DNA of 64,000 nt from the NCBI GenBank assembly GCA_963514005.1, contig OY740821.1, positions 15,128,001-15,192,000 on the forward strand. The letters run 5' to 3'. Source of the DNA: Raja brachyura (Eukaryota). Positions 4,000 to 62,318 of this stretch are shown piece after piece. The number at the start of each line of letters is the position of its first letter. The first letter of the stretch is position 1. The notes below the pieces were generated by a model. That model was not told the DNA's origin. It saw only the letters and a list, made by a program, of their open reading frames with translations, and did not search any database. The translations under genes were made by a program, and so were the position numbers.

Positions 4000-5400
4000 T
4001 AATAAAAAGGAACTGCAAATGCTGGTTTATACCAAAGAGAGAGAATGCTTGAGTAACTCAGCTGATCGGGCAGCTAGGTGACGTTTTGGGTCGGGACCCA
4101 TCTTCAGACTGATTGTAGTTGCGGGAGTGCACGGGAAAGGAAACGGACCAGGGTGGGGAAAAAACAGGACGAATTGGGGCCAGCAACAGATTACCTCAGG
4201 TAAGGAGGTTCCATGATCGCTGATTGGTGGCTGGAGACGGGTGTGAGGCCAAGAGGAATACATTATTGCAAACTGGAGCTGGTTAATGGACCTTTAGTAG
4301 AGGAAGGACAGGGGAGGGAGGTATTTGTAAAAGCTACGCAAAATGAGAAAATTTAATGTTCATACCGCTGGGTTGCAAGCTACCCAAGTGAGATATGAGG
4401 TGCTGCTCTTCCAATTTGCATGTGGCCTCACTCTGGCAATGCTGGAGACCCACGACAGAAAGGTCAGTGTGGGAATGGTAAGGAGAGTTAAAATGGTTAT
4501 CAACTGGGAGATCCGCTTGGCTGCTTTGGCAGACCGAGCATCAGCTTTCAGCGAAGTAGTCGCTGAGCCTATGCTTCGTCTCGCCGATGTACAGGAAACA
4601 TCAGGAACACTGAATGCAGTAGAACATACGCATGAGAACCTCGGTCCCACCAGGAAGGACTGTCGGGGTCCCTGAATGGAGTTGAGGGTGGACGTGCAAG
4701 GACAGGTGTTGCATCTCCTGCAATTGCTGGGGAAGGTACCTGGGGAGGGGGTGGAAGGGGATGAGTGAACCAAGGAGTTGCAGAGGGAGCGGAAAGGTGT
4801 GGAGATGGGAAGATGTGATTTGTGGTGGGATCGCATTGGAGGTTACGGAAATGTAGGAGGATGGTGTGTTAGATACGGAAACTGGTGAGTTGAAAGATGA
4901 GGACCAGGAGAATTGTCCTTGTGTGGGGAATTGGTAGGTTTGTAGTAGACGTCAGGTAATAGTCTGAAGAAGGGTCTCGACCCGAAACGTTGCCTATCTC
5001 CTTCGCCCCTTCGATACTGCTGTACCCGCTGAGTTTCTACAGCTTTTTGTGTAACCCCAGGTAATAGTCTATCTCTTGTGATGGAAACAGAGATGAAGAA
5101 AGGGGAGAGAGGTGTCAGTGATAGTCCAGGTGAATTTGAGGGCAGGATGGAAGTTAGTGATGAGGTTCATGAATTCTACGCTGATGCAGGAAGCAGTCCT
5201 GATGCAGTCGTCAATGTAACTGAGAAAGTTGAGGGATAGGGCCAGTGTATGCCTGGAACAAGGATTGTTTGACGTACTCAACAAAAAGGCAGGCATAGCT
5301 GGGGCCCATGTGAGTGCCCATGGCTACACCTGTTAACTTGGAGAAAATGGGAGGAGTCAAAAGAGAAGTTGTTGAGAGTGAGGACAAGTTTATAAGAGGA
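4000..5400 (-). mobile_element. Penelope-like retroelement remnant (RT + GIY-YIG endonuclease + 3' terminal repeat with hammerhead motif)
   Basis: Frameshifted RT motifs GVAMGTHMGPSYACLFV and YIDDCI; NFHPALKFTWTI; Cys-rich CNCRRCNTCP-like segment; C-terminal GIY-YIG region; then a terminal repeat with CTGAAGA..AAAACGTC at 4080-4107. Confidence 0.8.
4964..4991 (+). ncRNA. Minimal hammerhead-ribozyme motif in a short PLE-derived insertion nested in the PLE
   Basis: CTGAAGA-A-GGGTC-TC-GACCC-GAAAC-GTT. The insertion is flanked by the direct repeat CAGGTAATAGTCT (4953-4965 and 5058-5070). Confidence 0.6.
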
Positions 5401-6375
5401 TAGATGTAGTCGGCAGCCGCAGTGAGGTTTGGTATATTCAGAGACGCTGTTACGATTATGGTACCACTGTTGTAATTAGTCTTACTGCGGAATATGAGCT
5501 GTTCAACACGAGTCAGCAAACTTGCTGGCAGACCTCAGTTTGAAATTTTCCTTGCCATACAGATCAAGTTGCTACGCTAGTCTCTATTAAGCTGCTTGCT
5601 TTTATTCAGAACCAGAGTTGCACGGAGCAATGGTGAGGGAAGGGAATCAACTAGGTTCCTGCTCATAACCACTGTTCGGCCACCCCTCTTGAAAGTTGTG
5701 CAAGCTTGTCCAGTAGGCTTGCTCATGGAAAATTGGTAGTTGTTTGAGAGCTCCATTGCCACTTTCTGAGCTGTCATAGATAGTGCCTCCTGGGGAGATG
5801 AGCTATTTTACATTGGAAAAGAAAATGAGTCACAAAGTGAAAGGCTGCAGCAGGAACAACCTCGCTGTTGAACCTTGCAGGTGGTGTCCATTGATTTATA
5901 GCCTTCCCTCTTCAACTCTATGAAGCTCGAGTGCTGTTGCGTGACTTTGAGTGCCAATAAAAGTTTGCTTCCTCCTACTTCAATGTCTTTAGATTTCCAG
6001 AAGTATTTGAGGAAGGGATAGAAGGGTAGCAAAAGTTCCAAAATGAGCTCATAAAAACTCCATGCCTGAGGCAGTGAAAGACCAGGTATGCAACGCTGCT
6101 GTATTGTTTCAGTTGAGATTTATAGCGCAGTGAAGGTGGCTTGTCCTGAGGACACTGAGTCGGAAGGATGCGAGAGCTAAACTTTGGCATTTTTGTTAAT
6201 GCAATTTGGGGGATGGGTATTGAATGAAAAACTGCTGCTCTAGTGTCTCCAAATAAAACCAACCTAATTTTCTACTCCTTGTAATGGTTTCTGGAGCGTT
6301 GAGATTGTACTAATACAGAAATAACAGGAAACAACTCAGCCATTGGCTCGCAGGAGATCAATCCTATTCAGAGGG

Positions 6376-6503
6376 GTCTGAAGAAGGGTTTCGGCCCGAA
6401 ATGTTGTCTATCTCCTTCGCTCCATAGATGCTGCTGCACCCGCTGAGTTTCTCCAGCATTTTGTGTACCCTCTATTTTCCAGCATCTGCAGTTCCTTCTT
6501 TAA
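6376..6503 (+). mobile_element. Short PLE 3'-terminal copy with hammerhead-like core
   Basis: gtctgaagaagggtttcggcccgaaatgtt...gatgctgctgcacccgctgagtttctccagc...ccagcatctgcagttccttctt, the same family as the 38076-38220 copy. Confidence 0.8.
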
Positions 6504-6614
6504 CAATCCTATTCCCTTACTGCCTTGATGTATTCCCTCCCCCTCTCTTTCCCCTCCCCTCTCTTTTCCCTCCCCCTCCCTCTTGATTCCTTTTGCCATT
6601 AATCTTGGTTCAGG

Positions 6615-6781
6615 GTAACTGGCCATCGTACATCTTTGGGGATGTGGGAAGAAACTCGAGGATCCAGAAGACACCCACCCAGACATGGAGAGAATGTGCA
6701 GACAGCACCTGAGGTTGGATCAGACCCATGTTCCTGGAGCAGCGAGGCAACAGCACTAACTGCTGTGCCACCATGCTGCCC
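6615..6781 (-). mobile_element. Degenerate V-SINE
   Basis: Minus strand starts gggcagcatggtggcacagcagttag; V-domain ttcccacatccccaaagatgtac. Confidence 0.7.
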
Positions 6782-7271
6782 TTAATTGTATTATTATAAG
6801 CTGTTTTTCTCTGAGATTTTACTTGTTTTCACATTCCTCACAGACTTCAGATTGCTACGTAGCATGTGTTACAGCGCATTGGCTTAAAGTTGCCTTGTCA
6901 ATCATTTAATAGTTTAATTTGCACTACACAAAATTAGATCAGAATTTCCTTATGTGTTAAACGGTTGAATCAAAAAGATGAATCTGCTTGTCACCATGCT
7001 GGAACCAGTACAGGAATGTACGTCAGTTGACCAAGTTACTTGTGGAGAGACATGAGGTGGAGACTGAAAAATGAGAGAAAACCGTCAAAGGGTAAATAAC
7101 AGCATAGGCTGGTCCACTGAAAAGCTTCATTAATGGAAATTTGGTGGAAAGTGAATTTCAATGATGGGTTATAGCTGGTTCTGCACCCACTAAGGAACCG
7201 ATTGAGATTGCCTCAAGTTATTTCACTTGTAGGAAGTAGATTTTGAATACATAAACTGATCCCAGATACAA

Positions 7272-7367
7272 GTCTGAAGAAGGGTCTCAACCCGAAACGT
7301 TACCCATTCCTTCTCTTCAAAGATGCTGCCTGTCCAGCTGGGTTACTCCAGCATTTTGTGTCTATCT
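7272..7367 (+). mobile_element. Short PLE 3'-terminal copy with hammerhead-like core
   Basis: gtctgaagaagggtctcaacccgaaacgttacccattcc..., flanked by ccagata (7262-7268 and 7368-7374). Confidence 0.75.
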
Positions 7368-10189
7368 CCAGATATTCTAATGTTCTGTGATCTCCAGTGA
7401 CATTTTACTTGGTAGGTCTACGTAGGTCTTCTGTGCACATTGACCTTGCATATCACATTGTCTCTAAAAGATCCATGTTTTTGGTTCACCTTTAGAATGC
7501 AAAATCAACACTCTTCAGTATAAATGTTTTTATTGCTCTTGAAAGATGTACTCCAAACAACCACAAACTAAAGGAAAAATCAAAACAACATTTCAACAGT
7601 TGACAGAAAAAACATCTTCTTTCTGCAACACATTTAGGTTTCAAAGATACTTCAACTTATAAAATAAGCCCTAATTTTACCTGTGTAAATATTTATTTGT
7701 ACTGAGAACAAAATTGGACACTTTTAAAGGTAATATTGTACACAATATGAACAGAACTAATTCAAGCAACTATATTAAAACTTCAGGTTATACAATATTG
7801 TATCTGTAATGCTTACACAACAGATTTAGCGCTCATTTAATTTTATCCTCTGAGCAGATTTGTGAAGATTATTGGTGTGCCATTTAATAATGGTTACAAT
7901 GAGTTGCCTCCCCATCAAAAAGTACGTAGCTGTTTGAAATCTGAATAGTGCCTCTCGGCTGCTTTCTGGATACGCAATGCCAATGTTGCTCAACACTCTG
8001 CTGAACCGTTTTGTTCTTTTCTTTATGGTAGTCCTTGGCCGAACAGCCTGCAGGCTAGCTCTGTGATTCTCCCCCCCCCCCCCCCCCCCCCCCCCGTCCT
8101 TAATTCCATTCTATCAACCAAAACATTTATCATCTACAATAACACATTAACTTAACGTGCGCAGTCAAATGGCAATTGAGCATTTGTAAGATTTAACATC
8201 CGTACAATGAACTGTTTTAGCTTGGCCTCGGAGGTTGGCCAACATTGATCTTTAATAGTGATTGTGCTCATGTTGGAAATTTGCCAGATTAGCCATTACG
8301 CTTCAATGTTCCATTTTTTTTGTTTCCATTAACCCGACCCTACATAGCTAAAAGCACTCACCTGGGTTCAACAGCATCCCTACTTGCAAAAGTTGGTTTC
8401 ATAAACCACTGCACACAATAATTTCACAAAACCTCAGTGTGATTATGTATTGTATTATTAAAGTTCCTATTTGAATATACTTACAAAGTTATACTTGTGA
8501 ATGTATAATAAACAAGGCCTTATTAACCCCTTATATTTCAGTTTAGCGTGGTAAAATAACTTTTCCTGAAAAGCTGTGTAATATTAAGACTGTTTTGGTA
8601 CTTTAAACCATATTGCACTGGAGAGCTGAATGGGCATATGATTTTATTTATATCGAACTCTAGGACTCTCAAACAATGGTAGTGAATGTGGTTCACTTCT
8701 GGAAGTGAAGTTCTTGTAGCGTGCCACTTTCCCCACTGATACAACAATACAAAATAGGTAAAAGCTGGTATTAACTCGAATTTGATTTACACAGTGGCAT
8801 CCATAGTCGCACTTTGAACTTGTACCATGAGTTGTGCCCAATGGGGATGTGATGCAGTGTGTAATAAACATCCTCTCATTTCTTTGACTTTCCACAGTGC
8901 AACAGTTACCATTTGCGAAATCGAATCTGAACAAGCTTTCGTGCATTCAGAAATCTTTTCCTGAACCATGTTCAATGGCATGGTACTTCTGTTGCAGCAC
9001 TGCTCTCCCAGGTACTTTCAGGTTACTTTTAGACTGAATTAATAATGATCTGTGTGCAGATGGGGAAGGAAGCAACCAAATGTGCAATAAGGTAGAATTA
9101 GTAGCAAACATGGGAAATACGGTGATGCCAGGTTTATTTCATTAGGTTCCTACAACCTCAAGTAAAGGAGGACATTGTTTCCTTTAAGTCAACGAGGAAG
9201 CCTTAAACTTGAGAAACATTAAGATGCAGGTAATTCTAAAATATTTAACTATAATAACCTTTTGAGCTACTCCCTCTCATACAACGTTCTACATTTGCAT
9301 TAACTGTAACAAAAAAAGATTTGATACATAACCATCAAATCCTATGCACATGACTTGAAAATTAATGTTAATTACGAGTTCTTTATCAGGGCCAGTTAAA
9401 ATTGGACTGCACCCAAGCAAACATACTGCACTTCCCAAAACCCGTCTGTTTGGATCTCGCAGTGCTTTTTACAGAAGGATCCTTCCTTGTACAGCAAGGG
9501 CAGTCTAGATTTTCCACCCTATTGAGATTTATCCTGGGCAGAATCAATTTGTTGTGAATGTTTTAGGCAGATGAGGGGGCAGTTGGTCTTGCTTATATCT
9601 TGAGCACATTGCCTGAGATTTTTATTTTAAACACCACCCCATATCTCACTCCCATCCCCCACCACAGCCAAAGGGAATGATGCACAGAATGGGTTAAAAT
9701 CAGCCGAGACCTGGAAATAGTACTGGTTAGTTTTTTTTTGTGGGGGGAGGGGGAGCACCAGCAGCCATTAAGGGGACATACATTTCCTACCCTCCACCTA
9801 CATTTAAAATTGGGTCCACTGTCTCAGTAGATTGTGCCTGAAAATGTCCATGGTTGCAACAAATGTCCTCACTTTATAATCATTAGAAATGGGTTCTGTT
9901 CATAACCTATGTAAGCATCGTTTTCTTTTAATCTATTTTCAAAGATGAATAAATACACAGTCCTCCTGTGAGGGGAGCAGTCACTGTACAGGGCCGAATC
10001 ATTTGATAGTCATCTAGTATGAGGTGACCTGTAAGTAATTCCTCTGTCGCATTGTATACCTGAGTTTGAATCCACTCAATAAGGCCAGTAATGTCTACAA
10101 TAATAAGTAACTGGTCTCAGTGATATGTTTTAATTAGAATCCCACCAGTCTTCAATGTTTCTCAGTGAAATTAATGCTGATTTATATAT

Positions 10190-10860: not shown

Positions 10861-13800
10861 CGGGGACAGCATTCTCATAGAGTCAAACAGCACGGAAATA
10901 GGCCCTTCAGCCCAACTCATTCATGCCAACCAGGATGCCCCATCTACGGTAGTCTCATTTGCCTGCGTTTGGCCCACATCCATCTAAACCAATCCTATCC
11001 ATGTACCTGGGTACACAAAAATGCTGGAGAAACTCAGCAGGTGCAGCAGCATCTATGGAGCGAAGGAAATAGGCAACGTTTCGGGCCGAACCCCTTCTTC
11101 TATCCATGTACCTGTCAAGTGTCTTTTAAATACTGTTATAGTAGCTGCTTCAACTACCTCCTCTGGCAACTCATTCCATATACTCATCACCCTCTGTGAA
11201 AAAGTTGTCCCTCAGGCTCTTATTAAACCTTTCCCCTCTCACCTTAAAGTGAGCACTGAATGCAACACACTAATTCTTTTTCCAATCAACTGTAGTGTTT
11301 TGTATTTCACAGCTCCAGAATGTTTTTTGTATTCATCTCCTGTTTATGTTCTGCAGACAGGTCAGCTCTGATATGCCTTTCCCATCCTTGCTCAGGTAAC
11401 ACCACTACCTCTTGATTAACTCAGTCTCTTGGTCCCCATCTGCCCCTTCCCTGCAGCATAAAACACGTTTGATTACAATTTTAACTTTTCCTATTTCTGA
11501 TGCAAGGCCATTGACCTGAAATGTTAGCCCTTTCTTTTCACACATGCTGCCTGACCGACTGGTAACATTTTCTGATTTTATTTTAGATTTGCAGGATCTG
11601 GAGTGGTTTTGGAATAATGCAGCACTGGAAGAAGGGATTCAGCCTGGCACGGCCCGTTAGAAAGAGCTGGTTTCACTCCACTCCTCTTCGCACTATGTTC
11701 GTTTTTTATCCCTTTCGAAATAGGGACCTATTTCCTTTTTGAGACTTCCTATTTAATCTGCTTCCACTGCCCTTTCAGACAATGTGTCCCGGATTATAAT
11801 TCTCCACCTTCTTTCAGCTCTCGTGTCTTCTGATTACTGACCCTCTTGTCTATGTAGTTTCACCAGATCAAATCTACCAAACACTCTTAATTTTTCCCAG
11901 TTGTCTCGATGGCCATTTAAAATAACTGAGGTCACTTAAGGCTTTTTGTAAAAAAAATAAATAAAAGTGGACCTATTATTTTCGCTGCCAACTTTTTTTC
12001 CTGTCCCTCTGTTTGGGTTCCCTCTGCTCCAGCATACAAAGCAGAAAGTGAGCTGGCAAACTCCTCAAATCCCTCTGCCAGTTCTGTTTTTTAGATTGCT
12101 AGGACATAAATGGGTGACAACAATCCAAGTTGGTTCCTCCAGGGTTGTTTGTGTTGTGATAAATGGTTGCTTTTTGCTGTATTGTCCCTTTTACTGACAG
12201 TTTCCATTTGTACAGTGCCTCTTAATCTCGCCAGACGCTCCAAAACTGGAGCAGGTGACCAAATGTTTAGTCAGAGTTGAGTTTTGATGAGTGATTTCAG
12301 GATCGAGAGAGGCAGGGAGTTTAAGTGAGGAATTTCATCGCTTGGGACTTCCAAGTAGCTGAAGGCACGTCGAATAATGGTAGATCGAATAAAATCAGGG
12401 TAGGGCAGAATCGATTCTTAGAGGAATTAAGAAAAATCACAGTAACTATTGATTGAAAAGCAAGCTGATGCTTACAGGCACAATAAGCTGATTTAATATG
12501 TGCAGACTGTTGTGTTTCTCCAAGCTTCTCATTAATATTCCACCATTTGTATCACAGCCCAAAAATGATGGTCATGAAATGTGCCACAATTTACTGCAAT
12601 CTAACTTGCTTAAAGATTCTTTTGATCTTTGCATTTTGGTGATATTGCCTGTGCCTTGACGCAGCTGTTGATTAGGTTGCAATATCTGTCAGCACTTTCT
12701 CCATCCATTCATGCCACTAATCACTGATCAGCAGTTTCATGAAGTGGCTTTTGCAGCATAGTGTGCATATTAAAAAGAGATCCTCATGAATATTGATCAC
12801 CCAAGGAAGCATTCTGCTGCTCAACAAGGAATTCCTGCCTCCACCACCCGGAATGTTTTAAAGTGCCAGTGTTGGCACAAGTTGCAAGAGCCCGATGTAC
12901 CTTCTGCCCACCAGGATGTGGGATGGTGTGGATGACAACCAAAGGCTTGATCTTTTGAGTTCATTGATAATTAGAGTACAGTGATGTGATGGAACTAAAG
13001 GGTGAGGCAACCAATCTTGCTCAGTGCTCTGAATCTTCCCCAATCTCCCACTTGGTACCCCTACATGTTATCTCCCGATTCCACCCCCCTTCCCCCCTCC
13101 CCCCCCCCCCCCCCCCTTTCCCCATTGTGACCAATTCAGGCTTCCCTCCAACCAAGTGCAGGTTGTAAATGATTCGCGTTTGGTGTTTGCAAGGAGTCCC
13201 TTCAGCCCCTCTCCAGTCTGTTACATGGGGACAATACGAGGCCACTTTCAAGGCTATTTCAACAATCTGCTCTCTACGTTTCTGCAGCCTTTGAAACATT
13301 TACTTATCAACCTGTTTTAAAAATATATATTTTTGTTCCAGATTTCCTCTATCTTTAAATTATCTGGATATAATTGTAATATTGTGGTTCCCGCCGGGGG
13401 AATAGTTTTCTATCTACCCAGTCAACTCCCTTCATCTCAGTTGGATCACTCTTAATCTATACTCATGGTAACATGTGCCTTTAGTTTGTTTAAGAAGGAA
13501 CTGCAGATGCTGGAAAATCGAAGGTAGACAAAAGTGCTGGAGAAACTCAGTGGGTGTGACAGCATCTATGGAGCGAAGGAAATAGGCAACATTTCGGGTC
13601 GAAACCCGTCCCTTTTTTTGGACAGATACACTTTGGGAGAACAGTGCATACTTAGTACAGGCTTTGGCAGAATAAAATTTGTCTCTCAAATTTAAATGAA
13701 GGTTTCAGAGTGGGCCAGAATATTTCCATGGCAATAGCGATGTAGCCATCGATTATAACAGCAAGCATGAATCAGCAAATGCACCCGCACTTCCCTCTGT

Positions 13801-15979
13801 GACATTGTGATCTTTCACTGATCATGGTGCAAGCTTATTGATGTTTTTATCATTTGGTCTATGGAACTTTAGGCTTTATAAATAGAAGCAGAGTGTACGG
13901 AAAAAAAGCTAAAATACGAGACACAAAGTGCTGGAGGAACTCAGTGGGCCTGACGGCATCTGTGGAGGGAAATGGGCAGATGGTGTTTTAGATTTGGGCC
14001 CTTCTTCAGACTGATGTAGTGGGAGAAATCTGGAATAGAGAGTTGGAACAAAGCCTGGCAAGTGATCGATGGGAACAGGTGAGAGGGGAATGTTTCTATC
14101 ACAGGTGGATCGAATAAGTGACAAAGGCTCGGTGTGGAATGGATGCAAAAGGTTGTCATATTTGGAGAGAAGAGAAGGACACTCGTGTCTCCTTATCACC
14201 TTTAACTTTTGTCACCTACTCCATCCAGCAGAAATCACCTCCCATCCTCTGTATCCACCTATCACTTGCATGGCAATGTCTCACCCACCTCCCTTTCCAG
14301 CTTTCTCCCCCTACTGCAATCGGTCTGATAAAGGATACCAAACCTAAAATCTCATCTGTCCATTTCACTCCACAGATGTTGCCTGACCTGTTGAAATCTT
14401 ACAACACTTTCAAGATTTCAGCACCTACAGCCTCGCTTAAATACTAAACCTAGCCCAGTCCAGATTTAGGCTGCAGTACTGGCATCGGCTGAGTTCTGAT
14501 TTGGTCGTGGAAGTCTCTAATTTTACTTGCTTTTGTTTTAATAACCCATCGAATTAGGAAGTAGCACACGGCACGGGAGAGGGAGCTTAACTCTGAGCAG
14601 AAGTGCTTTTGGTTGATATTGAGTGCCCAGTGAGAGAGAGTTCTGCCCCAACATCAATCTTTAGCTTGAGTATTGCTCTCCCCCCTCCAACCCCAATCCC
14701 AAACTGCCTCCAGCTCCACGGCTTTTTGTGGGGGACTATTCCAGATTTCCATTGCCATTCGGATAAGGAATCATCATCACGACTGACTGGCTCCAGCTTT
14801 AAGATTCCAATTCCTTGTTCTGGGGTCCCCAAAAGAGGAAATAATTTCTCACTGCCTAACCTACACCCCACTGGTATCATTTACACCAACTCAGTTCATG
14901 CCTTCATCTTCTCCCCCTAAAGTAATACAAGGCCAGCCAGTGCTACCCTTTATCACCCCCCCCCCCCCCAGTGTAATCCTGGTAAATCTTTGCTGGAGCC
15001 CCAATCGTGAAGTGTGGGGCACTGAACTGAATGCAGAACTCCAGCTGTGGTGCTTTAAGCATCCTCCCCCATTGTCGCTCCTCTGCCCTTGTAATCCATC
15101 CCCTTTTGAGTAATACCAGAATGGATTGGCTCGGGCCAGGTCAGATCATAAATCGTACACACACTGTGTGCCAGTTTCCTAAATCAAAGAAGCTAAAGAA
15201 GGCTTTTGGCTTGTCCAGCGCTGACTAGTGAGGCTCCGGAATTCTGCAAGTGATGGCGGGAGGAAACTAAATGTTGATCGTTTGAAATAAAGCAGCAAAA
15301 ATGTTGGAATTGCAAAGCAGTATCAGTCAGGACCAGATGAGAGATAGTAGAAGTTAAACCTTCATGGGAACCAAGCTATCTCTTACCCCAAACCTTCACT
15401 GGCTGATACCCCGTGCCTTCCCACCATTTTATCTGTCAGATGAAAAGGAATTCAGCTTTTGAAACTTTTCGTTTAAACACTGTTGAGGACTTTGCAAAAG
15501 TTAAGAGCATATATCTGGTGTGCTGTTTGACTGTGTTTTCCTCTTTAAGAGACAGTCTCACTGCTAGTGCTCATTTGTCCCCTTCCTGCCTTTCCAAACC
15601 AAATTCATGACTAATATGATCTTTCTCTTTTTTTGTGTTTTTTTGTTTGTTTCACCAGCAACGTTAAACAGGGCAATTACCAAGCCAGGTTGTGGGTTTG
15701 CAAAATCTGTGGAATCAAATCTGACAAGTTGATACCAGTTACCAAGGGTCTGCTGTCTGTGCTTATTGAGAATGTTAATTTATTTTGCAGGTGCTGGTGG
15801 CCTCAGTAACTCCTCCCAGACTATCTGCTCTTCTATTGTGATCAGCAGTTACTGTTTCAATTGTGGGGTTGGGGGGAGGGGAAGAACCCAGAGACCTGGG
15901 ATCAATTAGTCCTAGTTCTTATTAACTGGCTGCTTTTTGTTTGGAAAATATGTTTCTGATGAATGAGGCCCAATTTGCT

Positions 15980-20582: not shown

Positions 20583-20609
20583 CTACAAAAAGAACAAATC
20601 AAAAAAAAC

Positions 20610-22006: not shown

Positions 22007-23779
22007 TTATCCATAGAGCCAGAAGGACACAAAGTGCTGCAGTAACTCAGCGGGTTAAGTTGCATCGCTGGAGAACATGGATAGGCAACGTTTCGGTTCG
22101 GGACCCTTCTTCAGACTCAAATGTGACCCAAAACATTGCCTATCCATGTTCTCCAGAGATGCTGCCTGACCCGCTGAGGTACTCCGCACTTTATGTTCTT
22201 CTGGCTCTATGGATAAATTTATGGATAAGTTTGAATAAATTTATGGCAAAATAATACATTTGGTTGGAACTTTGATCTCATCATTGAATTAATTATTGTT
22301 AGAAAAGAGAATAGCTTGAGAATAGAACAACTTGAGAAAAATAACGTCATCTTTAGATGAACAATTAGAATAAACCTTCACAGCCATTTATTAAGAGGAT
22401 AAATTTGTTTTGTAAAAAGGGACAGGCAGTTCAATACTTTGGGTTAATTTACACTGTTCGGCCTCATGGTGAATTAAAGAATACATCTTGAAAGCAGGAA
22501 CATTCAATATTAATTAATGATCCTAAAATTCAAATTCGGTATAAAACGATTATAATACCCACTGTTTTCATTTTATGAAGAGCTGATCGTGTCAAACTCG
22601 CAGCTGTGGAGAATTGCACTGGGATTTGTATGCCCCATTATGTGCTGCTCTATTTAATAGTGTCGTGTGGCCACAGGGCAGTTAGTCAGCTGCAATCCAA
22701 ACCCATTTGCAGTTAAATGGCCCTATCCTAACAGGCAGGGGTCATGACCCCATATCTCTCTCCCTGCATAACATCATCTGCTTCTCAAAGGATTTGGCCA
22801 GAATTGCAAACAAACACTTCACAACGCGGAATGGGCAAGAACCCCTTTATGCAATTCCCGCAGGATATTTGATCCACTGTTTTAAAAATGGAAATCTTGC
22901 TGTTTAAATTCACAATAAATGAGCCTCTAAAGTACATTTCCTCTCACAGTGTTTGGCTTAAACTGCCCATTGACATTCCAGTTGCCCAGCCCTTATGGAA
23001 TGGTTATATATAGATATGCCAAACCAGATAGGAACAACAGCTTGACTTTCTGAAAGAATATCACTGAACTATTTTCGCTATTGCAACAATCCAGCAGTTT
23101 CAGGGTTACTTTTACTGAGATTTCAGTAAAAGTAAATTTTCAGATTTGGTTGGGTAGCTTCCAGCCCAATGATATGGACATTGAATTCACCAATGTTAGG
23201 TAACTAACCAACAAACACCCAATATGTGGGTGAGAGGACAAATCTGGGGAGAATTGATGGGAACATGGGGAGAATAAATGAGTTACGGTAGGATTAGTGA
23301 AAATGGGTGCTTGATGGTTGACTCGGGGCCAACAGCCTGTTTCTGACTTCTATTTCTCTATGGCATGCAAAGAGATTAAGGATGAATTGACCAAAGAACA
23401 GTCCCTTCAGAATGCTGAATAGGGAGGGGAAGATAAGGTGGTGGGAACTTGCTGTAGACAGCAGAAATAGCAAAGGATGATGTGTTGAAGGTGGAAGTTG
23501 GCGGAGTGAAAGGTGAGGACCAGCTTGTTCTGTCCACGAAGAGAGGGCAGAGAAAGCAGAGGCGGGACGTAGATAAGATCTGGTCAAGAGCTCTGCCAAG
23601 TATGGTGCAGGAGAAGCAACAGTTCAGGAACAAGCAAGACATTTCAGAGGCAAATACAATGGAGAAAGAGGAACTGGGAGAATGGAATAGCATCCTTGCA
23701 TGGGACAGAGTGGGTTGCAGTATGATCGAGATCACTGCAAGACTCTGGGCTTCTCTTGGAAATTGCAAGCATCCACATT

Positions 23780-25410: not shown

Positions 25411-25411
25411 A

Positions 25412-26190: not shown

Positions 26191-28009
26191 TTATTCCCCC
26201 AAGATTACTTTGCTCCTTCTGCAGCAAACATTTAACACATTCTTATTTCCTCCTTTACTTTTCTCTTTCTGTACAAGCTATTTAATATTTATGGAACTGC
26301 TGGAATTCAAGCTGGATCTAACCAAGTTGGGGAGGAAAGAAAATTCCTTTGGTTGTTGCTTACGAACTGCGAGGCACCAGTTGTATCTCGGTATTTTTTT
26401 CCTGCTCAGCATGTTAGAATACTTCTGAGGGAATACCCTCTTCACCATGGCCTCTTGTACACCAATATCTGCCTTGAACCGCTGATCTCAGATTACTGGT
26501 TACATAAACCTTCCTCCTGTGATCTTCCTACGCTTGTAACTCGGGAAGGCAGTTTCTTAACTATTTCTCTTAACTGTGAAGAACCAAGAAACAGCAGGAT
26601 TAACTCACTAATGACTAACAGCAGATTAACAATGTTCATAAAACGAACTGACTGTACAGGTTGGTAGATGATGATAATTAGTCCTCTTGCTCGCTTGAAT
26701 AGTTTTATACGAAACTGCTCTAACTTGCAAGACTGAGATATGATTTCCAAAAAAATAATCTCACCAAACGAGATATAGATAAAGCTCCATCACCTCTCCA
26801 GTAAAGACACATCCCTTCTGCACCAAAGTTGCTGGCCAATGTCCTTTCCCCACAGACAAGGAAGATGAGTACAAGGTGATGATGAGGGTTCCCAATGGGC
26901 TCCATCAAGCCTGGTGCAACCATTAGTTGGGAACTACCTCCGCCTCTGAAGTATCAGTTAAAGCATGGGGGTGGGAGATTGCAACCTTCACGTGGTCCAC
27001 CCTGTTTCGACTAATGCAATCAGCCTGGCGTGCACAAACAAGATCAAACAGAACAAGTTGTCTTACAACTTTAGGCTGTGCACGCCACACGCAAGAAGGA
27101 GAAGAAGTTAATGCATGAATGATAATCCTGTAACTTTGATGAAAGTGCATGGCACATTCTGCCTAAAAGGTGGTGATTAAATCCAGAAACACTGAGGATG
27201 CAACTGTTGAGGGCTTTCTCGTTGGCCTCCGCAGCCATGGTTGTAGAGAGTTGACTTGTTGTTCTACAAACCATCCACCTAATATCTCCTTTTCAGGCAC
27301 CAGGAGAGGTTGCACAAGGTGTCAGGCCACGTGTGGGGGTGACACTACTGAGCTGAGATGCTCCTGAGCTGTAATAATTGGTAAATCTACCTATAGAGAA
27401 GTAAGATAGACTTAATATAGAAGTAAGATAGACCAAGATGTAATGTGTCCCTGTTTGCAAGTTCACTGCCAGCCAATAAAAGCTTTGAAGTCTGCATCCA
27501 ACAGGAAAATTGATCGCCCCCAATGCAAGCAGTCAGTCCAATTTGGCAACATTGGCTTTGTATTATTGCGTCAAAATATCAAGTTGCAGTGTTGGTGAGA
27601 GAATGCTGCTCGGCACTTCTCTCAGTTTTGCCAATATGCTGCGAATCTCAACTGAAGGCACCGCTGGCTCCAAGCAACTATGCAATGATTCTGCTCCTAT
27701 GTGAATGGATTGACGCTGCTTGTTTGCTGCAAGTTGCACCAAATGTCCTTTTCAGTCCCAACTGAAGGCAGGCTCAGTAGAAGGTTAGACACAAGAAATT
27801 GCAGATGCTGGAATCTTGCATAGAACACTAAGTGCTGGAGTAACTCAGTTGCTCAGACATGTCTAGGCAACCTTTTGGAGTGGGACCTTTCTTCAGCCTC
27901 CAAAGATGCTGCCTGACCTGCCGAGTTACTCCACCACTTTGTGTTCTCAGTAGAAGGTTAGCTGGGAAATGCCTCATCATGATGTACAGGCAGGCAACCT
28001 CTTACTCCT

Positions 28010-38176: not shown

Positions 38177-38204
38177 GACGTTTCGGGTCGAGACCCTTCT
38201 TCAG
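38177..38204 (-). ncRNA. Minimal hammerhead-ribozyme motif, intact core with GUC site
   Basis: Minus strand reads CTGAAGA-A-GGGTC-TC-GACCC-GAAAC-GTC. The element (38076-38220) is flanked by TSD GCTATCGTATCTG (38063-38075, 38221-38233). Confidence 0.65.
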
Positions 38205-43837: not shown

Positions 43838-43973
43838 TCACCTGATCCCCTAACGTGTCGCAAAGACACCTCAGTAAGAAGGAACTGCAGATGCTGGTTT
43901 AAACTGAAGATAGACACAAAAAGCTGGAGTAACTCAGCGGGACAGGCAGCATCTTTGGTGAGAAGGAATGGGT

Positions 43974-44001
43974 GACGTTTCGGGTCGAGACCCTTCTTCA
44001 G
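43974..44001 (-). ncRNA. Minimal hammerhead-ribozyme motif, intact core with GUC site
   Basis: Minus strand reads CTGAAGA-A-GGGTC-TC-GACCC-GAAAC-GTC-ACCC at the 5' end of a short PLE-tail copy (about 43875-44001). Confidence 0.6.
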
Positions 44002-44370: not shown

Positions 44371-44739
44371 ATAAACCAGCATCTGCAGTTCTTTGTTTCT
44401 ACAGGAAAGCGTGTGCTTGAGAGGCTAAGGTGAGCAACATGGCTGAGATGTGGGGGCGCAGGGGCCGAATGGCCTACAATAGTCTATTGTCTATTATCCC
44501 ACTACCAGAACCAAAACAGATGATCACTTAACACACCTACTGCACCTATAGTCTATGTTTCAGACTCTCTTCATAGACATCACACTCCCTTTCTCCAGAG
44601 ATGCTGCCTGACCCGCTGAGTTACTCCAGCATTTTGTGTCTATCTTACATGGAAGTTCATTTTGAGGGCGTAACTTAAAAATAAAAAGCATTGTTGTTCA
44701 GGGTAAACGTATCCCGGTTGGTTCTCCATTGTTTTCCCA

Positions 44740-48268: not shown

Positions 48269-48269
48269 A

Positions 48270-48998: not shown

Positions 48999-49420
48999 GT
49001 CGCTGCTCTGTACACATTGGCAAGCCAGGAGTTACAAAGAACTGCAGATGTTTGTTTAAACAACAAGACACAAATGCTGGAGTAATTTAGCGACTAGGCA
49101 GCATCTCTGGAGAACATGGATAGGGTGTTTCGGGTCACCTCACCTATCCATGTTCTCCAGAGATGCTGCCTGACCCGCTGAATTTCTCCAGCACTTTGTG
49201 TCCTATTTTTACAAAAAGCTGTGAGTGCTGCTTTGTTGCTCGTGTGTGTGTCAACATTGCGTCTGAGAAAACACTGCCTTTGGTAGGATCTTATTAATGA
49301 AATCACTTCTTTCTGCATGACAGCTGCAGAAGCCATTGGCAGACTGTAAGTGGAGTGCACACAAAGAGGAGCATGTTCTTTTTTGTTTGAGCTTTGCCCT
49401 TCTTTAAAGTAGGAGACAGG

Positions 49421-50373: not shown

Positions 50374-51815
50374 GTAAGTCTTTGTTTTGCCTTTGTGGTA
50401 GCTGCTTCAATTGTTTTAAACTGGTAGAAAATCTGGGACATTATTGTGAGAGAGAAGAGGGAGCCAGAAACCAACCAGTGAAATTCAGATTAAGTAAGTT
50501 TTAACCAGATTTCAAAGCTGTTCAAGCTATCCATAAACCAGCATTACTTAAAACAGATAATCTGTTCCTTATCAAATTGTTTTGCGGGGAAATCTTTTAC
50601 ATTGTTATAATGCCCATGTGCCAAAAAATATCTGCTTGATTGTAAAGTGCATTTTAGAAGGGCTGAGGGTAACACAAAATGCTGGAGAAACTCAGCGGGA
50701 CTTAACAGTGCATTTTAGAAGAGCTGAGGTGAAAATCTCTGTAGAAATGCAAGTGTGCCCTTTTCACATATCATGACAGGCGACGGTCTCATGCAGTGAG
50801 GATCCGCAACTCATACGGTGTCCCTGTGAATGAGAGTCCGCCTATTGGTCATCAGTCAGGCCTTGCATGTTTCACAGAAAAACACCCTTTCAACATACTC
50901 GCACCTCAAGTGTTCTCACGATGAAGGGACAGCAATACATTTCCAAAGCAGGGTGGTGTAACTTGGGAAGGAACCTGCAGATAGAGCTGCTCGCGTGTGC
51001 CCACCACTCTCAACTCCCAGGGGCTGGAGGCCAGACTCACTGTCAGAATAGCCTAGGTGACGATACACACTGCAGCCACTGTTGCCTGGTGGAGGGAGAG
51101 AATCGAGCATGCACTTCACTCTGGGTGATGTTGAGCTTCTTGAGACGTATTACACTTCATTCATCATACCCTTTTCTTTTATCTTGGAGATGATGGAAAG
51201 GCTTTTAGCGAGGAGGGAGAGTTCAGCTGCTGGTTGCTTTAAATGACCAATGGAAACAAACTTTTAACAAAGTCAATTATCAAAGTAATCAAGAACTATA
51301 AAGATGATTTTGTGGCATGGTATGAAGTGGGTGGACATTGGAGAAACTGAAATTGCTTCCTGTACAGGGGAAAGGGAGAATTAATGGTGACCTTCAAAAC
51401 CATGAAGGAATTTTGATGGAGAAGTATTTAAGCTGGAGGTAGGTACATTTTTTAAAAATCAGGGAAGAGGGCAGTGGTGAAGTGGTGCAGGCAAGAGGGG
51501 CCTGGTGCCAACATTCTGCTCCTATATTCTGATGTGGAGGCAGAGAAACTTTCCAGAGGCTGGAGGGGCAGCAAACAAAATTAATTTTTGTTTAAGATTC
51601 ATTTAAGATTTAAGATGACTGACAACATTACACAAAGTGGTTAAACATTTAGAGGCCATTCGGGAATGAGCAGGGGAGTGGAACTACTTGGAGTGATTGT
51701 TTCTAAGGCTAGCACACAAATTGTGGGCTGAATGGCACTTTTCTACAATATGATATGATGAATTAACTTTTACAGATTGTGTGTCATTTAATAAATGGTT
51801 ATGTTTTCTTTCCAG

Positions 51816-51951: not shown

Positions 51952-53934
51952 GCGGGTGGTTGGCAGCTGAGTGAATGCTGCCAGTGGCTCCAGCCAGCCT
52001 CAGACGGGGGTCCGTATGAGTGATGGGCACAATGTACTGAGACAATGAACCAAGAAGAGCCTGCTGACACAACCATCCAAATTAGTGACAATTTACTTAC
52101 AGCCAAGATCTTCCACTTGGCCAAGTAGGAATTGTGCTCTTGTGTATAATTTTATATTGTTTCTCTCCTTTTGCATCATTTGTATACATAAAAAAAGGTT
52201 TGTCACTGAGGGCGTGGTAGTGTTTGTGCACGTAAGAACATGAATGCATACATCAAGCAGTATTCTGCTCCTGCCTCCTGTCTACACTTCCTCTCGGATC
52301 AAGTCCACAACAATTATATACATTTCTTCATTGTTCCTACTCCCGTCCAGAAAGCACTCGGTGTAATTCCTCTTGTATATTAGAACAATTACTTGATTTT
52401 GGCTGACCGTGGTTTACTAAACTAAAACACCTATGAGGCACAGTCACTGCATGAGGTATTATAGATCTAAACCTTGAACATGGGGGATGGTTATAGCCCT
52501 TGCAGTAAATAGTAACTTGGCAGAAAGATTAAACTGAGAGGTAAACCACATCACCTACCATACCTTGCCCAATAAGACACCCTTCAGAGGTGACACTGCC
52601 AAAGCCAAACTTAAAACTTCAAGAAACTTGGTTGATTTTTAGTTTTTACAAAGCATCTACTTAAAACTAAATGAATTTATCATTGCAATTGATTATACAA
52701 TTTACTGTTTGCTGCAGCCATCATTTAACATTCATATACACAATCAACTTGGTTAAGAGAGCTGTGCTCTATCAACTCTGAATCAGAGTGTTTGCTGCTG
52801 AAACTGGAGCACAAAAATGCAAGTTAACATTCCCAGTGAATGCACTAGTGTTTGACTGTTCATTGATTTCAAGGTTCTATTCTCTTGCCCAAGGCACTGT
52901 TTTGAAGAACAGGTTAGTTTACCCCAAATCTATCACTTAACCAATATCACTCAAACATAATAAAAACTGCAGATGCTGGGAATCTGAAATAACAGAAAAT
53001 GCTGAAAAAACTCAGCAGCTCAGGCAGCATCTGTGAAAAGAGGAACCTGAAGAAGGTTGCGAATGCAGAGATGCTGCCAGACCAGCTGAGTGTCCAACAC
53101 ATTTTAGTGGAATCCCATTGTACACGCGATTAAATTTAAAAAAAAGACTTGATTGGATCAAAAGCCATCAAGGCTCGTAAGGATGCTATAAAACATGGAA
53201 ATCTTTCAAATCAATGACTGGTTCATAATATCTTTAACTAACTTTTCATTTCCCAAACCTTCGAACACAAACTATGACACAAGTTGTGCTCAGTGGGCAG
53301 TTCACAAAGATCTAAGCATTCAAGTGTATATTTTAAAGTGCTTTTTACCCCCCTTCAAATGGGAGCCACTCCAGGTATTGAACCCAGCAATGTGAGCATC
53401 GTTCCTGTACCTCCATTGTACTGGTCAATATGTTATTCAGACTGTAGTTCTGGCCTCCTGCTCTGATGGAGTAATGGAATATGAGCATTTCTTCCCGTCA
53501 CATTTTTTTTTAACTCGACTAACACAACCAAACAGATTAACTAGACACTGCTGTGTATGAGATCCAGCTATGCACAATGTGGACATCACATAATTAAAGC
53601 CATGAGCTGGATTGTGCACAGCCCGGGACACCTTGTTGCATCTCCAGGCTTTCAGTTTCAAAAATCAGCAATGCCAAACGTTGTCTCGAGTGCAAGAATC
53701 CCAAGTGAAACAAGAACTGTAAGCCTGTAACAAAGTTCCAGCCCCTGCACAACAAAACTACATTGTGACGACAACATTTGAAATCCTAGCAAACTAGAAT
53801 AAAAAGATAATGCAGATTCACTAGCAACAAAGCTAATTTCAGCAGTGATCCTTCCACATTTTGCATTTATCCAAACAGGGCTAGTTATCAAATAGTGACA
53901 CGCACAAATATTGTATGACTTTTAAATATTATTG

Positions 53935-55181: not shown

Positions 55182-57224
55182 TATATGGTTGCTGAGTGTA
55201 TCATATTTAAAAAACAAATCCCTTTCTTTACAAAGAAAAATACACTTTGGTAATGCAATATGCATTTATTTTTACTCCCCCAAAAGTTCTGGCTAACAAG
55301 AAATTGTGTTGGGATCTGCAAGCCTTTTTACAATCAAAAGACTGGAGGTGTATTAACAAGATAGAACTATAATTTACGAGGTTATTTAATTTAAAACTTC
55401 ATCAAATGGAAAATAAAATGAGAAAATGTTGTTGAACAAATCAGCAAATCAGAACCTCAGTGGATTCCCCCACAGTGTGCCTCTTCCAAGCAGAACCACC
55501 CACCAAGTTTACTGTTTAAGAAAGAATTGGAGATGCTGGAAAAATCGAAGGTAGACAAAAATGCTGGAGAAACTCAGCGGGTGAGGCAGCATCTATGGAG
55601 TGAAGGAATAGGTGTCTGAGGAAGGGTCTCGACCCAAAAAGTCACCTATTCCTTAGCTCCCCAGATGCTGCCTCACACGCTGAGTTGCTCCACCAAGTTT
55701 ACTGTTGGCGGCTAGCAAGGTTTCTGGTACCTTGAATGCATGATAGGGGCACTTGTTTGAGGCATCTTTTGAAATCCAGGATTTCAGGCATACATTCAAC
55801 TAACTACATTGACCTAGTTTTCCTGAACAATCTCAAGGTAGTGCGTCAGCATCTCTGGTGATTTAGATCTTGTCAAGTTGAAAACAGCAGATCATCCTGG
55901 AGTGTACACTATCCTCTTTGAGTATACAATGCTCTCTTGCTAAATTCTAAGCCCGTACCATGCACACAGAAGGGCATGGAATAGTCAACATGTATTCAAA
56001 TTCAATTCCCTACTGTCCGAGAATTGATTTTATGCATGGGCCACAGATTTTGCAATTTTTTGGGTTGAGTCAGTAGTAGACTTATAGGGTAGCACTCTAT
56101 ACATGTATACACAATATAGTAAGCATTTATTAAGTGGACATGTTTTGGCCAAGTTCCCAGAGAAAGCGGGTTAAGTTGCCAACAAAGTATACATACTGAA
56201 TCTATCAATAAATACACTTCCCATTCCCACCCTATGGAGCAGTGAACACATGATGCAAAGGTTGGACTGTGTACATTCCAGTGTTAACCCCTGGGTACCT
56301 TATTTGGGTTGCAAGGCACTTCATAGTTGTGTTCAACTTTATGGTGAATTCTGCAGACGTCAATGTAACATATTTACTTGCGCCATTACTATGAAATAAA
56401 TGTTCAACTTTGTTGAGGAATTTTGTTAAAGCCAATTAAGGAGCTGAAGGAGAGGGGGACAGAGAGAGAGGAGTAGACATTACAACAATAAGAGACAGCA
56501 GAATAAAACGAGTACAACTCCATTTTTCTATTTATGGTAGAGCTATCAAAGGTTCATATTTTTTATAAGATTTGTGTACGATTTCTGCAGCACAATAATT
56601 TTCCAATAAATATTTAATTTTTTTAAAGTTACAAAAAGAAATTGTATCCCATCTCTAAATCACAATAAGTGTGGCGATTTTACACAGTTAACTCAAATTA
56701 TTTTCTGGTTCCTTTCTAAAAAAAAAGTGCTTTCTTTTAAAAAGAAAATACCTACCATACGGTGGAAATCAGGCCAGCAGCCAAGCACAATGTTTAGTCT
56801 GTTCCTTTTGCATTGCAAACTTTTCCCCATTAAAAATGGTCAGGAGGATGTATGACCTTGGGGAAAGGAAGAGCCGAGAAACGGAACATTTCAGGAGGAG
56901 GTAGCCGAGCATGGAAGAATAATAAAGCATTTAAAAAAGTCACCTACCGGGTAATTTTTCATCTACCTGTGGAAACCAGAAATTAATTTGTCTTTACCTA
57001 ACAAATTATAAAGTAAAGCCCTCTTAAGATCACTTTAGTTGCTACTGTACATCCAAATTAAAATGTTAAAAACAAGGTACAGTTAAAGTCTATTCATTCA
57101 ATTCAATCAAGGAGGACTTTTATTTGTCTTTGTTCTAATCTAGAATCAGGATTTGACCTTCTCAGTCAGGCTGCTATCTAGCTGACTGAGGTGATCGCTG
57201 AGGTTTGTTTTAGCGCTTTAAGGC

Positions 57225-59776: not shown

Positions 59777-59937
59777 CTGTGATATCATAGACTTTGCCAT
59801 CCATCATAGCAAAGTAGGTGATTTTCAATCCCAGCATGCTTGATTCTGCCCAGAAGTCTCCAGCCTCCACAGGGTGCCTCTTGTTACATTCGGCACAGTA
59901 CCGAGCGGCCTGAGGGTCACGATCCATCTCAAACCTC
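59777..59937 (-). CDS. DNAJC14: DNAJC14 exon (Jiv90 zinc-binding region)
   Basis: [53 protein letters not shown]; tatttgcag| ... G|gtacga; 161 nt. Confidence 0.95.
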
Positions 59938-60214
59938 CTGCAAATAACCGTCACACCTCATTGTGACACACAAGTAGATAAGGAAGCATAGTTCCAAAAA
60001 GACGATTTGAGATTAGACCCCGATGTGGACTTGTCTGGGAATTATTCCTTAAACGGTCATGCATGAATCTTCTGCAGCTTTCAGAGTGTTGCGGATAGCA
60101 AGGAAATAGGAATTACATTGTGCAGACTCGATGGGAGCAAAGCTATTTTGGGAATGGAGAGGGGCAGGAAAACAGGCCGGAACAGAGTTACAAGCGGGTG
60201 CACTAGAGCAGCTA

Positions 60215-61817
60215 CAGTGGCTTGCAAAAGTTTTCATACTCCTTGAACATTTCTACATTTTGTCACGTTACAACCACAAACGTAAATGTATTTTATTGGG
60301 ATTTTATGTGATAGACTAACACAAAGTGGTGCATAATTGTGAAGTGGAAGGAAAATGATACATGGTTTCCAGATTTTATTACAAATAAAAAACTGAAAAA
60401 TGTGGCGTGCAAAAGTATTCTGCCCCCCCCCCTGAGTCAATACTTTGTAGAACCACCTCTCGGTGCAATTACAGCTGCAAGTCTTTCGCGGTATGTCTCT
60501 ACCAGCTTTGCACAGCTAGAGACTGAAATTTTTGCCCATTCTTCTTTGCAAAATAGCTCAAGCTCAGTCAGATTGGATGGAGAGCGTCTGTGAACAGCAA
60601 TTTTCAAGTCTTGCCAGAGATTCTCAATTGGATTTAGGTCTGGACTTTGACTGGGCCATTCTAACACATGAATATGCTTTGATCTAAACCATTCCATTGT
60701 AGCTCTGGCTGTATGTTTAGGGTCGTTGTCCTGATGGAAGGTGAACCTCCGCCCCAGTCTCAAGTCTTTTGCAGACTCTAACAGGTTTTCTTCCAAGATT
60801 GCCCTGTATTTGGCTCCATCCATCTTCCCATCAACTCTGACCAGCTTCCCTGTCCCTGCTGAAGAAAAGCATCCCCACAGTATGATGCTGCCACCACCAT
60901 GTTTTACAGTGGGGATAGTGTGTTCAGGGTGATGTGCAGTGTTAGTTTTCTGCCACACATAGCGTTTTGCATTTAGGCCAAAAACTTCACTTTTGGTCTC
61001 ATCAGACCAGAGCATCTTCCTCCACATGTTTGCTGTGTCCCCCAGATGGCTTGTGGCAAACTGCAAACGGGACTTCTTATGGCTTTCTTCTTGCCACTCT
61101 TCCATAAAGGCCCGATTTGTGGAGTGCACGACTAATAGTTGTCCTGTGGACAGATTCTCCCACCTGAGCTGTGGATCTCTGCAGCTCCTCCAGAGTTACC
61201 ATGGGCCTCTTGGCTGCTTCTCTGATCAATGCTCTCCTTGCCCGGCCTGTCAGTTTAGGTGGACGGCCATGTCTTGGTAGGTTTGCAGTTGTGCCATACT
61301 CTTTCCATTTTCGGATGATGGATTGAACAGTGCTCCGTGAGATGTTCAAAGCTTGGGATATTTTTTTATAACCTAACCCTGCTTTAAACTTCTCCACAAC
61401 TTTATCCCTGACCTGTCTGGTGTGTTCCTTGGGCTTCGTGATGCTGTTTGTTCACAAATGTTCTCTAACAAACCTCTGAGGCCTTCACAGAACAGCTGTA
61501 TTTATACTGAGATTAGAATACACACAAGAGGACTCTATTGACTAATTAGGTGACTTCTGAAGGCAATTGGTTGCACTGGATTTTATTTAGGGGTATCAGA
61601 GTAAAGGGGGCTGAATATTTTTGCTGCCACACTTTTCAGTTTTTTATTTGTAAAAAAATTTGAAAACCATGTATCATTTTCCTTCCACTTCACAATTATG
61701 CGCCACTTTATGTTGGTCTATCACATAAAATCCTAATAAAATACATTTACGTTTGTGGTTGTAACGTGACAAAATGTGGAAAAGTTCAAGGGGTATGAAA
61801 ACTTTTGCAAGCCACTG
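60215..61817 (-). mobile_element. Tc1/mariner DNA transposon, Passport-like, ~1.6 kb, long (~210 bp) TIRs, TA target duplication
   Basis: ta|CAGTGGCTTGCAAAAGTTTTCATAC ... GTATGAAAACTTTTGCAAGCCACTG|ta. The inverted repeats extend to about 60430 and 61605 and enclose a transposase. Confidence 0.96.
60437..61439 (-). pseudogene. Disrupted DD34E Tc1 transposase
   Basis: ACG in place of ATG at 61439 (xKPKEHTRQVRDKVVEKFKAGLGYKKIS...). HTH and GRPPK motifs present; frameshift near 61080; catalytic WSDE...QDNDPKH...(34)...NPIE intact. Confidence 0.9.
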
Positions 61818-62318
61818 TAATGGTATCCAGAGGAATGACAAGGAACTGCAAATGCAGACTTACCAAAAAGACACAAAGTGCTGGAGCAACTGAACAGGTC
61901 AGGCAGCAACTGTGGAGAATAGGGATAGGCGATGTATCGGGTCTGAAGAAGGGTCCCGACACAAAACATTGCCCATCCATGTTCTCCAGAGATGGTGCCT
62001 AACCGCTGAGTTACTCCAGCATTTTGTCTCTTTTTTTTCTCCCTCTTCTCTCTAAACTAAACTTGGATGGATACATTTGACTGAGCAGTTAAATCATTCC
62101 TATGTTGGAAAGATGTTCCATTGTAATTGAATGAAGAACCCAAGGGTACCTGACAACTGTTAAATTCTATTCTAAGAGTTGGCTCCAGGGAGAAGGGGTG
62201 GGGGTGAGCGGGGAGTGGTGAAGGAGAGGGAAAACCCGATCAGGGAGACTAAAAACAAAACAAAAACCACGCAGCTATACACTTATAACAGATTCGCAAA
62301 AGATAAATGAGCACAAAC

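Follow-up and report, generated by a model that had tools for sequence, protein, structure and literature searches.

Minimal type I hammerhead ribozymes were described in the pseudo-long terminal repeats (pLTRs) of metazoan Penelope-like elements (PLEs) by Cervera & De la Pena in 2014 (PMC4209133), and Lunse et al. 2017 also dealt with them, as cited in PMC6765202. The typical unit of a PLE with an endonuclease (EN+ PLE) comprises a pLTR, an inverted 5'-truncated arm and a tail of 30-40 bp, and rotifer solo pLTRs without duplications have been ascribed to recombination or deletion (both in PMC8557442 and PMC3846280). The role of the hammerhead in PLEs has been called unclear (PMC8557442). In this study, we analysed a 64,000-nt stretch of the Raja brachyura genome (contig OY740821.1, positions 15,128,001 to 15,192,000 of the forward strand; hereafter the window), in which an earlier note made from the letters alone had pointed out a dispersed repeat with a hammerhead core. 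The repeats are short dead copies of the pLTR of a young PLE encoding reverse transcriptase (RT) and a GIY-YIG endonuclease, and they resemble a short interspersed nuclear element (SINE) in look only. The ends of 92 sampled copies show that the copied RNA was not cut at the ribozyme site, and we lean towards a start of the PLE RNA at the hammerhead core as the origin of the short copies. Throughout, position 0 is the C of CUGA (hammerhead C3), and cleavage is predicted between +27 and +28.

Repeats in the window and their parent element

The motif as first described was found at 10 window sites with three or fewer mismatches (shuffle mean, 0.01), and BLAST gave 25 merged loci consisting of 33 fragments. 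The previous estimate of about 20 copies was thus right for loci but not for intact motifs, since the full core (CUGANGA...GAAA.NUH) was kept in only six of the 33 fragments (4964+, 6378+, 7274+, 22114-, 38204- and 44001-), and the 22114- copy has a G.A break in stem II. Among the sites given as examples, 11075- was without CUGA, and 32009-, 39196+, 55616+ and 61943+ were damaged in the core. The commonest changes among 70 copies fell at three CpG sites and a variable loop base; because changes are concentrated at CpG sites, the GAAA to AAAA change, which had been noted as decay, is ordinary CpG mutation.

Target duplications of 7-17 bp were clear in eight of the 16 window insertions examined, and four others showed 6-bp matches that were not counted. 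The window copies were dispersed or head-to-head, with no tandem array of two or more hammerhead units as in retrozymes; outside the window, a few short local tandems were found. Non-LTR retrozymes (bioRxiv 10.64898/2026.07.22.740005) are alike in their derivation from PLE pLTRs, type I hammerhead, many monomers and presence in one chondrichthyan genome. They form tandem arrays of hammerhead units (mean 363 bp in that chondrichthyan), whereas the copies here are dispersed stubs of 95-135 bp with target duplications and PLE ends.

The link to a PLE could be read directly in the window. A broken RT/GIY-YIG open reading frame (ORF) at 4341-5385 on the minus strand (tblastn against an unbroken ORF, E 1e-44) is split by a younger stub, and the pLTR at 4007-4111 follows the stop and pyrimidine-rich 3' untranslated region (UTR) of this remnant in the same sense. 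The proposed joining of the motif at 4080-4107 to a PLE was therefore correct, although this copy has lost G12. In a genome-wide RT search, open frames of more than 1,000 aa were present in eight of 150 scored matches. The frame was whole in three of 20 fetched loci (L033, L034 and L035), that of L033 being 1,192 aa from the first Met, and each of these unbroken ORFs has a hammerhead core downstream. Pfam matches were weak and below the cut-offs (RVT_1, E 2e-4; GIY-YIG, E 2e-3); direct inspection revealed DKG, YIDD, a C-x4-C-x2-C linker and the GIY-YIG boxes. The order in the single ORF, RT followed by a C-terminal GIY-YIG domain, is that of EN+ PLEs, and so are the partial tandem pLTRs (L035 and L045), the inverted arms and the 35-nt tail (+94 to +129). 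A CX2-5CxxC zinc-finger-like linker between RT and endonuclease marks Neptune and Nematis PLEs (PMC8557442); here the C-x4-C-x2-C motif stands directly ahead of GIY-YIG as in Neptune, and Nematis shares the linker. This Neptune-type linker distinguishes the protein from that of PAc, the Anolis Poseidon element (Frangieh et al. 2024, PMC11167929). A side feature of L033 is a proline-rich low-complexity stretch of about 300 aa (L033:4374-5800) between a conserved-looking N-terminus and RT.

The unit runs from the ORF through the stop, the pyrimidine-rich 3' UTR, YCAGT, the hammerhead core (0 to +27), a conserved stem module, the +94 end and the tail to the +129 end. In tandem copies it continues beyond +129 into the 5' UTR, with the ATG at +163. 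As in PAc, the hammerhead heads the pLTR; the PAc ORF starts within stem II, whereas here it starts past the tail (PMC11167929).

Genome-wide (2.7 Gb), the exact 27-nt core occurred 53,803 times and the same 27-mer reversed did not occur; 5,585 further copies belonged to a UUCG-loop variant. By comparison, about 4,000-9,000 motifs were given for coelacanth and Xenopus (PMC4209133). Young 3' anchors numbered 38,580 and ORF-start motifs 685. With stubs in such excess over ORF-bearing copies, and with a putative start site and the RT site both present in the stub, so that self-copying is conceivable, the repeats might be supposed to be a separate non-autonomous family of the SINE type with master copies of its own. 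We regard this as improbable. Subfamily-diagnostic bases are common to stubs and long copies, the stub head is the PLE's own sequence, and the copy at 38076-38207 shares 100% identity with an unbroken element's pLTR. Furthermore, flanks and junction scraps vary from copy to copy, and neither a tRNA-like head nor a poly-A tail was noticed by eye (no tRNA scan was made). The earlier suggestion that an abundant SINE-like repeat is a PLE terminus with a minimal type I hammerhead motif was accordingly upheld, the terminus being the pLTR of an unbroken RT/GIY-YIG element; for annotators, it follows that this highly abundant repeat should be recorded as a PLE end despite its SINE-like look.

Structure of the hammerhead motif

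Judged from its sequence, the motif belongs to the minimal type I hammerheads known from animal PLEs. The CUGANGA, GAAA and NUH boxes are present, together with an extra A between A9 and G10.1, the G10.1-C11.1 pair and a palindromic 15.2-16.2 stem (ACGU) without loop 3. The described minimal hammerheads share the CUGANGA and GAAA boxes, the extra base, the G10.1-C11.1 pair and the loop-less palindrome, as well as the pLTR location, the predominance of solo copies genome-wide and the opposite-strand pairs (PMC4209133). One motif family dominates here, in contrast to the many covarying ones in that report; indeed, a general minimal-hammerhead descriptor applied to 807 kb of loci chosen for the motif returned only this family (127 matches).

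Of the two core forms first proposed, CTGA(A/T)GA, intact copies read CUGAAGA, and no intact CUGAUGA copy was seen in motif scans of the window and the fetched loci. Stem II had been drawn as 5 bp with a 2-nt loop; it is better drawn as 4 bp (GGGU/ACCC or GGGU/GCCC) closed by a CUCG, CCCG or UUCG tetraloop. Stem I is short, as had been stated: 2 bp (G-C, then U-A or U.G) with the next position mismatched. In Schistosoma families helix II has 7-8 bp and helix I 4-5 bp, and in D. virilis helix I has 2 bp (PMC4209133).

Conservation was examined in 15 upstream-distinct long copies, which were selected by core similarity and a few of which are junction cases rather than lineages. Column identity was about 0.33 at -14..-7, rose from about -4 and reached 0.87-1.0 in the core, with dips in loop II and at +28, where A and G, both able to pair with U2.1, occur. 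Alignment of the family, as proposed in the earlier note, thus gave a core conserved above its flanks; two-sided covariation of the stems was absent from the 20 rows compared for it. In these 20 rows, 92.5% of stem II cells were paired, all changes in stems I and II were one-sided, and the UUCG subfamily likewise carries a one-sided U-A to U.G change in stem II.

The hammerhead fold was disfavoured in folding calculations, by which cleavage is neither shown nor excluded. Predicted pair probability was 0-0.15 for stem II in five copies, where a rival hairpin wins, and about 0 for stem I; dimer calculations did not recover the fold, and the alignment consensus prefers GGGU paired with the bases right after the cut site. 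This weak predicted folding agrees with the low activity reported for PLE hammerheads (PMC4209133) and with the protein-dependent cleavage of the PAc hammerhead (PMC11167929). A search with hammerhead models had also been suggested; no Rfam hammerhead model matched the window at E<=1, as expected for loop-less minimal forms. Five sub-threshold Rfam matches to miRNA and lncRNA models were taken as chance or fold-back arms.

Two further structural ideas were considered and rejected. Splicing, with the CAG before the core as 3' splice site and a donor-like site at +161 resembling the arrangement in D. virilis, might have rescued stem I; the predicted junction was present in none of the fetched loci, no GT..AG joint was found among the public-run contig rows inspected, and such splicing would leave stem I no longer. 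A long-range rod pairing AGAUGCUG with CAGCAUCU had 95% of cells paired; its covariation was unconvincing (30 of 500 shuffles reached the score), and single-sequence folding gave z of -1.6 to +0.9. In L035:5585-5717 (minus strand), the ten bases at one end of the 132-nt unit are able to pair with the ten at the other, and the AGAUGCUG/CAGCAUCU pairing lies in the tail. Closed in this way into a rod, the unit would hide its CUGAAGA box; the rod is a candidate for an RT-binding fold or an off state, to which covariation lent no support.

As a separate observation, in copies with G and GT before the core (L243-L272), GGGT stood right before the core in 14 of 30 sampled copies by way of junction scraps, so that stem I can reach 4 bp by pairing with the nucleotides that follow the cut site. 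Extrapolated from this sample, the genome may hold a few thousand copies whose hammerhead is better formed than that of the parent.

Ends of the copies

To map the ends, 92 young copies were chosen by an anchor at +67..+94, independently of the core, from 70 regions in the first 4.1 Mb of contig 1. Because a few duplicated loci are included, the true number of events is slightly below the counts. The 3' ends fell at +94..97 in 54 copies and at +127..132 in 35, ends shorter than +94 being invisible with this anchor. These two fixed ends (+94 and +129) mirror the two internal RT start sites of PAc, which lie about 110-130 nt downstream and yield an optional tail (PMC11167929).

The 5' ends were concentrated just before the core: 44 of the 92 fell at -7..0 (24 solo copies and 20 inverted arms; an earlier mapping with other references gave 42), and 26 lay more than 300 nt upstream. 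The observation that many copies begin within a few nucleotides of CUGA was thus confirmed genome-wide. Among the 34 solo copies starting between -99 and +66, 24 fell inside this 8-nt pile-up, that is, in 8 of 166 positions, and none at +26..31. In the contigs of four public runs, loose ends were also present at -3/-4, so that the boundary is not peculiar to this sample; these were Logan contigs from at most three studies, whose RNA status was guessed, one run being probably DNA.

It had further been suggested that the ribozyme may define the 5' boundary, and self-cleavage yielding template ends, as retrozyme-like monomers or circles, has been proposed for PLE hammerheads (PMC4209133). The full-length copy in L033 starts 6 nt past the cut site, and four of 30 rows anchored on the ORF start begin at +20..+34. 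Cleavage, however, lies 3' of the core, and the pile-up lies about 30 nt upstream of the cut, with the whole core kept; only one of the 92 copies began at +26..31, and this was an inverted arm. In PAc, the cut site was not where RNA reads ended, and mutants of the hammerhead still inserted (PMC11167929). Self-cleavage as the source of the stub ends is therefore largely refuted and, as an account of the boundary, very improbable. [quoted passage not shown]

Nine of the 30 rows anchored on the ORF start begin at -13..+3, and most of these rows are composites, in which the second arm restarts at -7..+2 in 14 of 27 rows. Additional RT start sites at the ORF start (+185..+284) were considered and rejected, such ends being template jumps to a second pLTR arm.

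RNA start at the core as a candidate explanation

The explanation towards which we lean is that the repeats are dead pLTR insertions and that the short ones are run-off cDNAs from the 5' end of the PLE RNA. RT would bind the pLTR module and start copying internally at +94 or +129, as may be expected from PAc (PMC11167929). Transcription would start at the initiator-like YCAGTCT, with A at -3, touching the core. On the 5' module, RT would then run off the RNA end once it had copied about 97 or 132 nt, at times adding a G by copying the cap, and the cDNA would integrate, fold back into head-to-head pairs or jump template to give composites; on the 3' module, RT would produce the familiar long copies with truncated 5' ends. 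The hammerhead would cleave weakly, with the help of a dimer or a protein, and would be dispensable for these insertions, as PAc inserts without hammerhead cleavage (PMC11167929).

The initiator (Inr) consensus is YYANWYY. The boundary YCAGTCT fits it with A at -3, and we infer that a start site there accounts for the boundary better than the structure of the ribozyme. The D. virilis Penelope has an internal promoter with Inr and downstream promoter element (DPE) in its pLTR (PMC2377424), and an Inr-like motif is present in a rotifer pLTR (PMC3846280).

An extra 5' G marks capped full-length L1 and SVA insertions (PMC4859970), and the bases before AGT plus core were examined accordingly. Among 6,876 non-native cases, G preceded in 3,371 (49% vs 32% by base composition) and A or T in 3,505. 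A target duplication followed by one extra G and AGT was present in six of ten resolvable non-inverted G-class copies, and a single extra base in one of 23 A/T-class copies (p=0.001). This cap signal supports an RNA start weakly and is suggestive only.

Several points weigh against the start-site explanation. The extra G loses its contrast in the full sets (6/52 vs 1/48, p=0.11): all six extra-G copies came from the first 30 G-class loci and the next 20 gave none, a single G was seen in one of 17 upstream-truncated controls, and the G+GT class (5,692 copies) consists mostly of templated scraps, which can raise G without a cap. The start site is predicted from DNA, since contigs are uninformative on RNA starts or cuts; the pile-up is spread across -7..0 and not on one base; and the 92 copies come from one contig region, where a few of their loci are duplicated. 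In D. virilis, the hammerhead follows a 46-nt leader and an intron and is not at the start site (PMC2377424, PMC4209133).

The main rival places the cause in RT itself. The RNA would extend upstream, and RT would stop or self-prime just beyond the core, either at the small YCAG-T-CTGA palindrome or where the ribozyme is folded or bound by protein, so that the stubs would be ordinary 5'-truncated copies of the 3' pLTR that share a strong stop site. The genome holds 1,237 exact head-to-head palindromes centred on that T, inverted arms make up 20 of the 44 pile-up copies, microhomology and short templated scraps rich in G and A are frequent at the junctions, and the 26 copies that read more than 300 nt past the boundary also fit. 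Junction palindromes and self-priming are, moreover, known in rotifer Penelopes (PMC3846280). On the other hand, 24 solo copies without an inverted arm start at the identical place, and the excess of single G is not predicted. RT is generally expected to stall ahead of a structure, not once it has copied through it, which also speaks against a pause beyond the ribozyme. We hold such a pause or fold-back site to be possible but unlikely.

A more tentative extension of the start-site explanation joins the two functions. The core would double as a core promoter, with Inr at -3 and the ACGU box, which overlies the cleavage triplet, as a DPE-like element; the tens of thousands of 97- and 132-bp stubs would be 'strong-stop' cDNAs of the capped mRNA 5' end, and the ribozyme would decap or switch off the RNA rather than free a template. 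If this were true, the positions at which PLE transcription and RT copying begin could be read from the genome to the base.

Relation to earlier work

Hammerheads in PLE pLTRs (2014, PMC4209133), mass solo dispersal, inverted arms and tails are already published. EN+ PLE units share with the present element partial tandems, head-to-head arms with junction palindromes, tails, target duplications, solo pLTRs and an Inr-like motif (PMC8557442, PMC3846280), and differ from it in that solo stubs with their own target duplications and a sharp common 5' boundary form the majority here. PAc is alike in that insertion is independent of hammerhead cleavage; no assignment of genomic 5' ends to an RNA start at the core was found in the sections of the PAc paper covered (PMC11167929). 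A report of PLE stubs starting at the core owing to an RNA start was not found in the literature searched, outside which lay Lunse et al. 2017, Repbase and one supplement of PMC4209133; cartilaginous fish names were not found in one searched supplementary file of PMC4209133. The tens of thousands of insertion junctions in the genome bear on the role of the hammerhead in PLEs. If confirmed, an RNA start at the core would extend the internal-initiation model to explain the dominance of pLTR-only stubs.

Feature coordinates and other observations

The copies and PLE parts in the window are collected in Table 1.

Table 1 Parts of the PLE remnant and copies of its pLTR in the window. Bracketed ranges are unit positions.
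Positions	Strand	Feature	Basis
4007..4111	-	pLTR of PLE remnant: YCAGT, core 4080-4107 (G12 lost), downstream module, tail	
4341..4908	-	frameshifted part of PLE remnant with Zn-linker and GIY-YIG endonuclease	tblastn E 1e-44
4961..5057	+	young short copy (-3 to +93), intact core, within older PLE remnant, 13-bp target duplication	
5090..5385	-	PLE remnant, RT part (GVAMGT..GPSYACLF..YIDD region), frameshifted	blastn 74%; tblastn vs unbroken L033 ORF
6376..6506	+	tailed copy (-2 to +129) of the UUCG-loop subfamily, 11-bp target duplication	
7271..7371	+	short copy (-3 to +97), core intact, 7-bp target duplication	
11009..11100	-	short copy from about +2, without CUGA, 15-bp target duplication	
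13487..13607	-	tailed copy, start +8	
13919..14013	-	decayed old copy (-4 to +89)	
22027..22185	.	head-to-head pair; minus arm from -3, stem II mismatch; in host-gene intron 1	
27793..27944	.	decayed head-to-head pair, 16-bp target duplication	
31942..32036	-	short copy (0 to +94), damaged core	
37690..37862	.	old head-to-head pair; plus arm from -3	
38076..38207	-	very young tailed copy (-3 to +128), 13-bp target duplication, G preceding AGT start	
39191..39313	+	old tailed copy, damaged core	
40408..40675	.	nested or composite head-to-head insertion, 9-bp target duplication	
43874..44001	-	tailed copy (0 to +128), core intact	
44583..44646	+	fragment +31 to +94	
49040..49202	.	head-to-head pair without core	
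50665..50699	-	small 3' fragment	
52965..53099	.	head-to-head fragments without core	
55513..55695	.	fold-back insertion; plus arm from -2, G12 lost; 17-bp target duplication	
61869..62031	.	fold-back insertion; plus arm from -2, damaged core	

Weak tblastn matches to the PLE protein on the minus strand at about 10651-10788 (E 2e-4) and 23401-23700 (E 4e-6) are probably older PLE remnants. Elsewhere in the genome, one head-to-head insertion was found at several distant places (L144, L176, L182, L233 and L234); because its downstream flank is identical at these places, it probably rides inside another multiplying repeat.

The window also contains a three-exon myostatin/GDF11-type gene on the minus strand (about 16102-33420; exons near 33150-33420, 20200-20580 and 16102-16480), so called from TGF-beta propeptide matches, a best PDB match to GDF8 and a mature domain with an RTRR site; its first intron holds three loci of the repeat family. 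A Tc1/mariner-type DDE_3 transposase fragment lies at 60440-61195 on the minus strand, and a similar fragment was found in L029.

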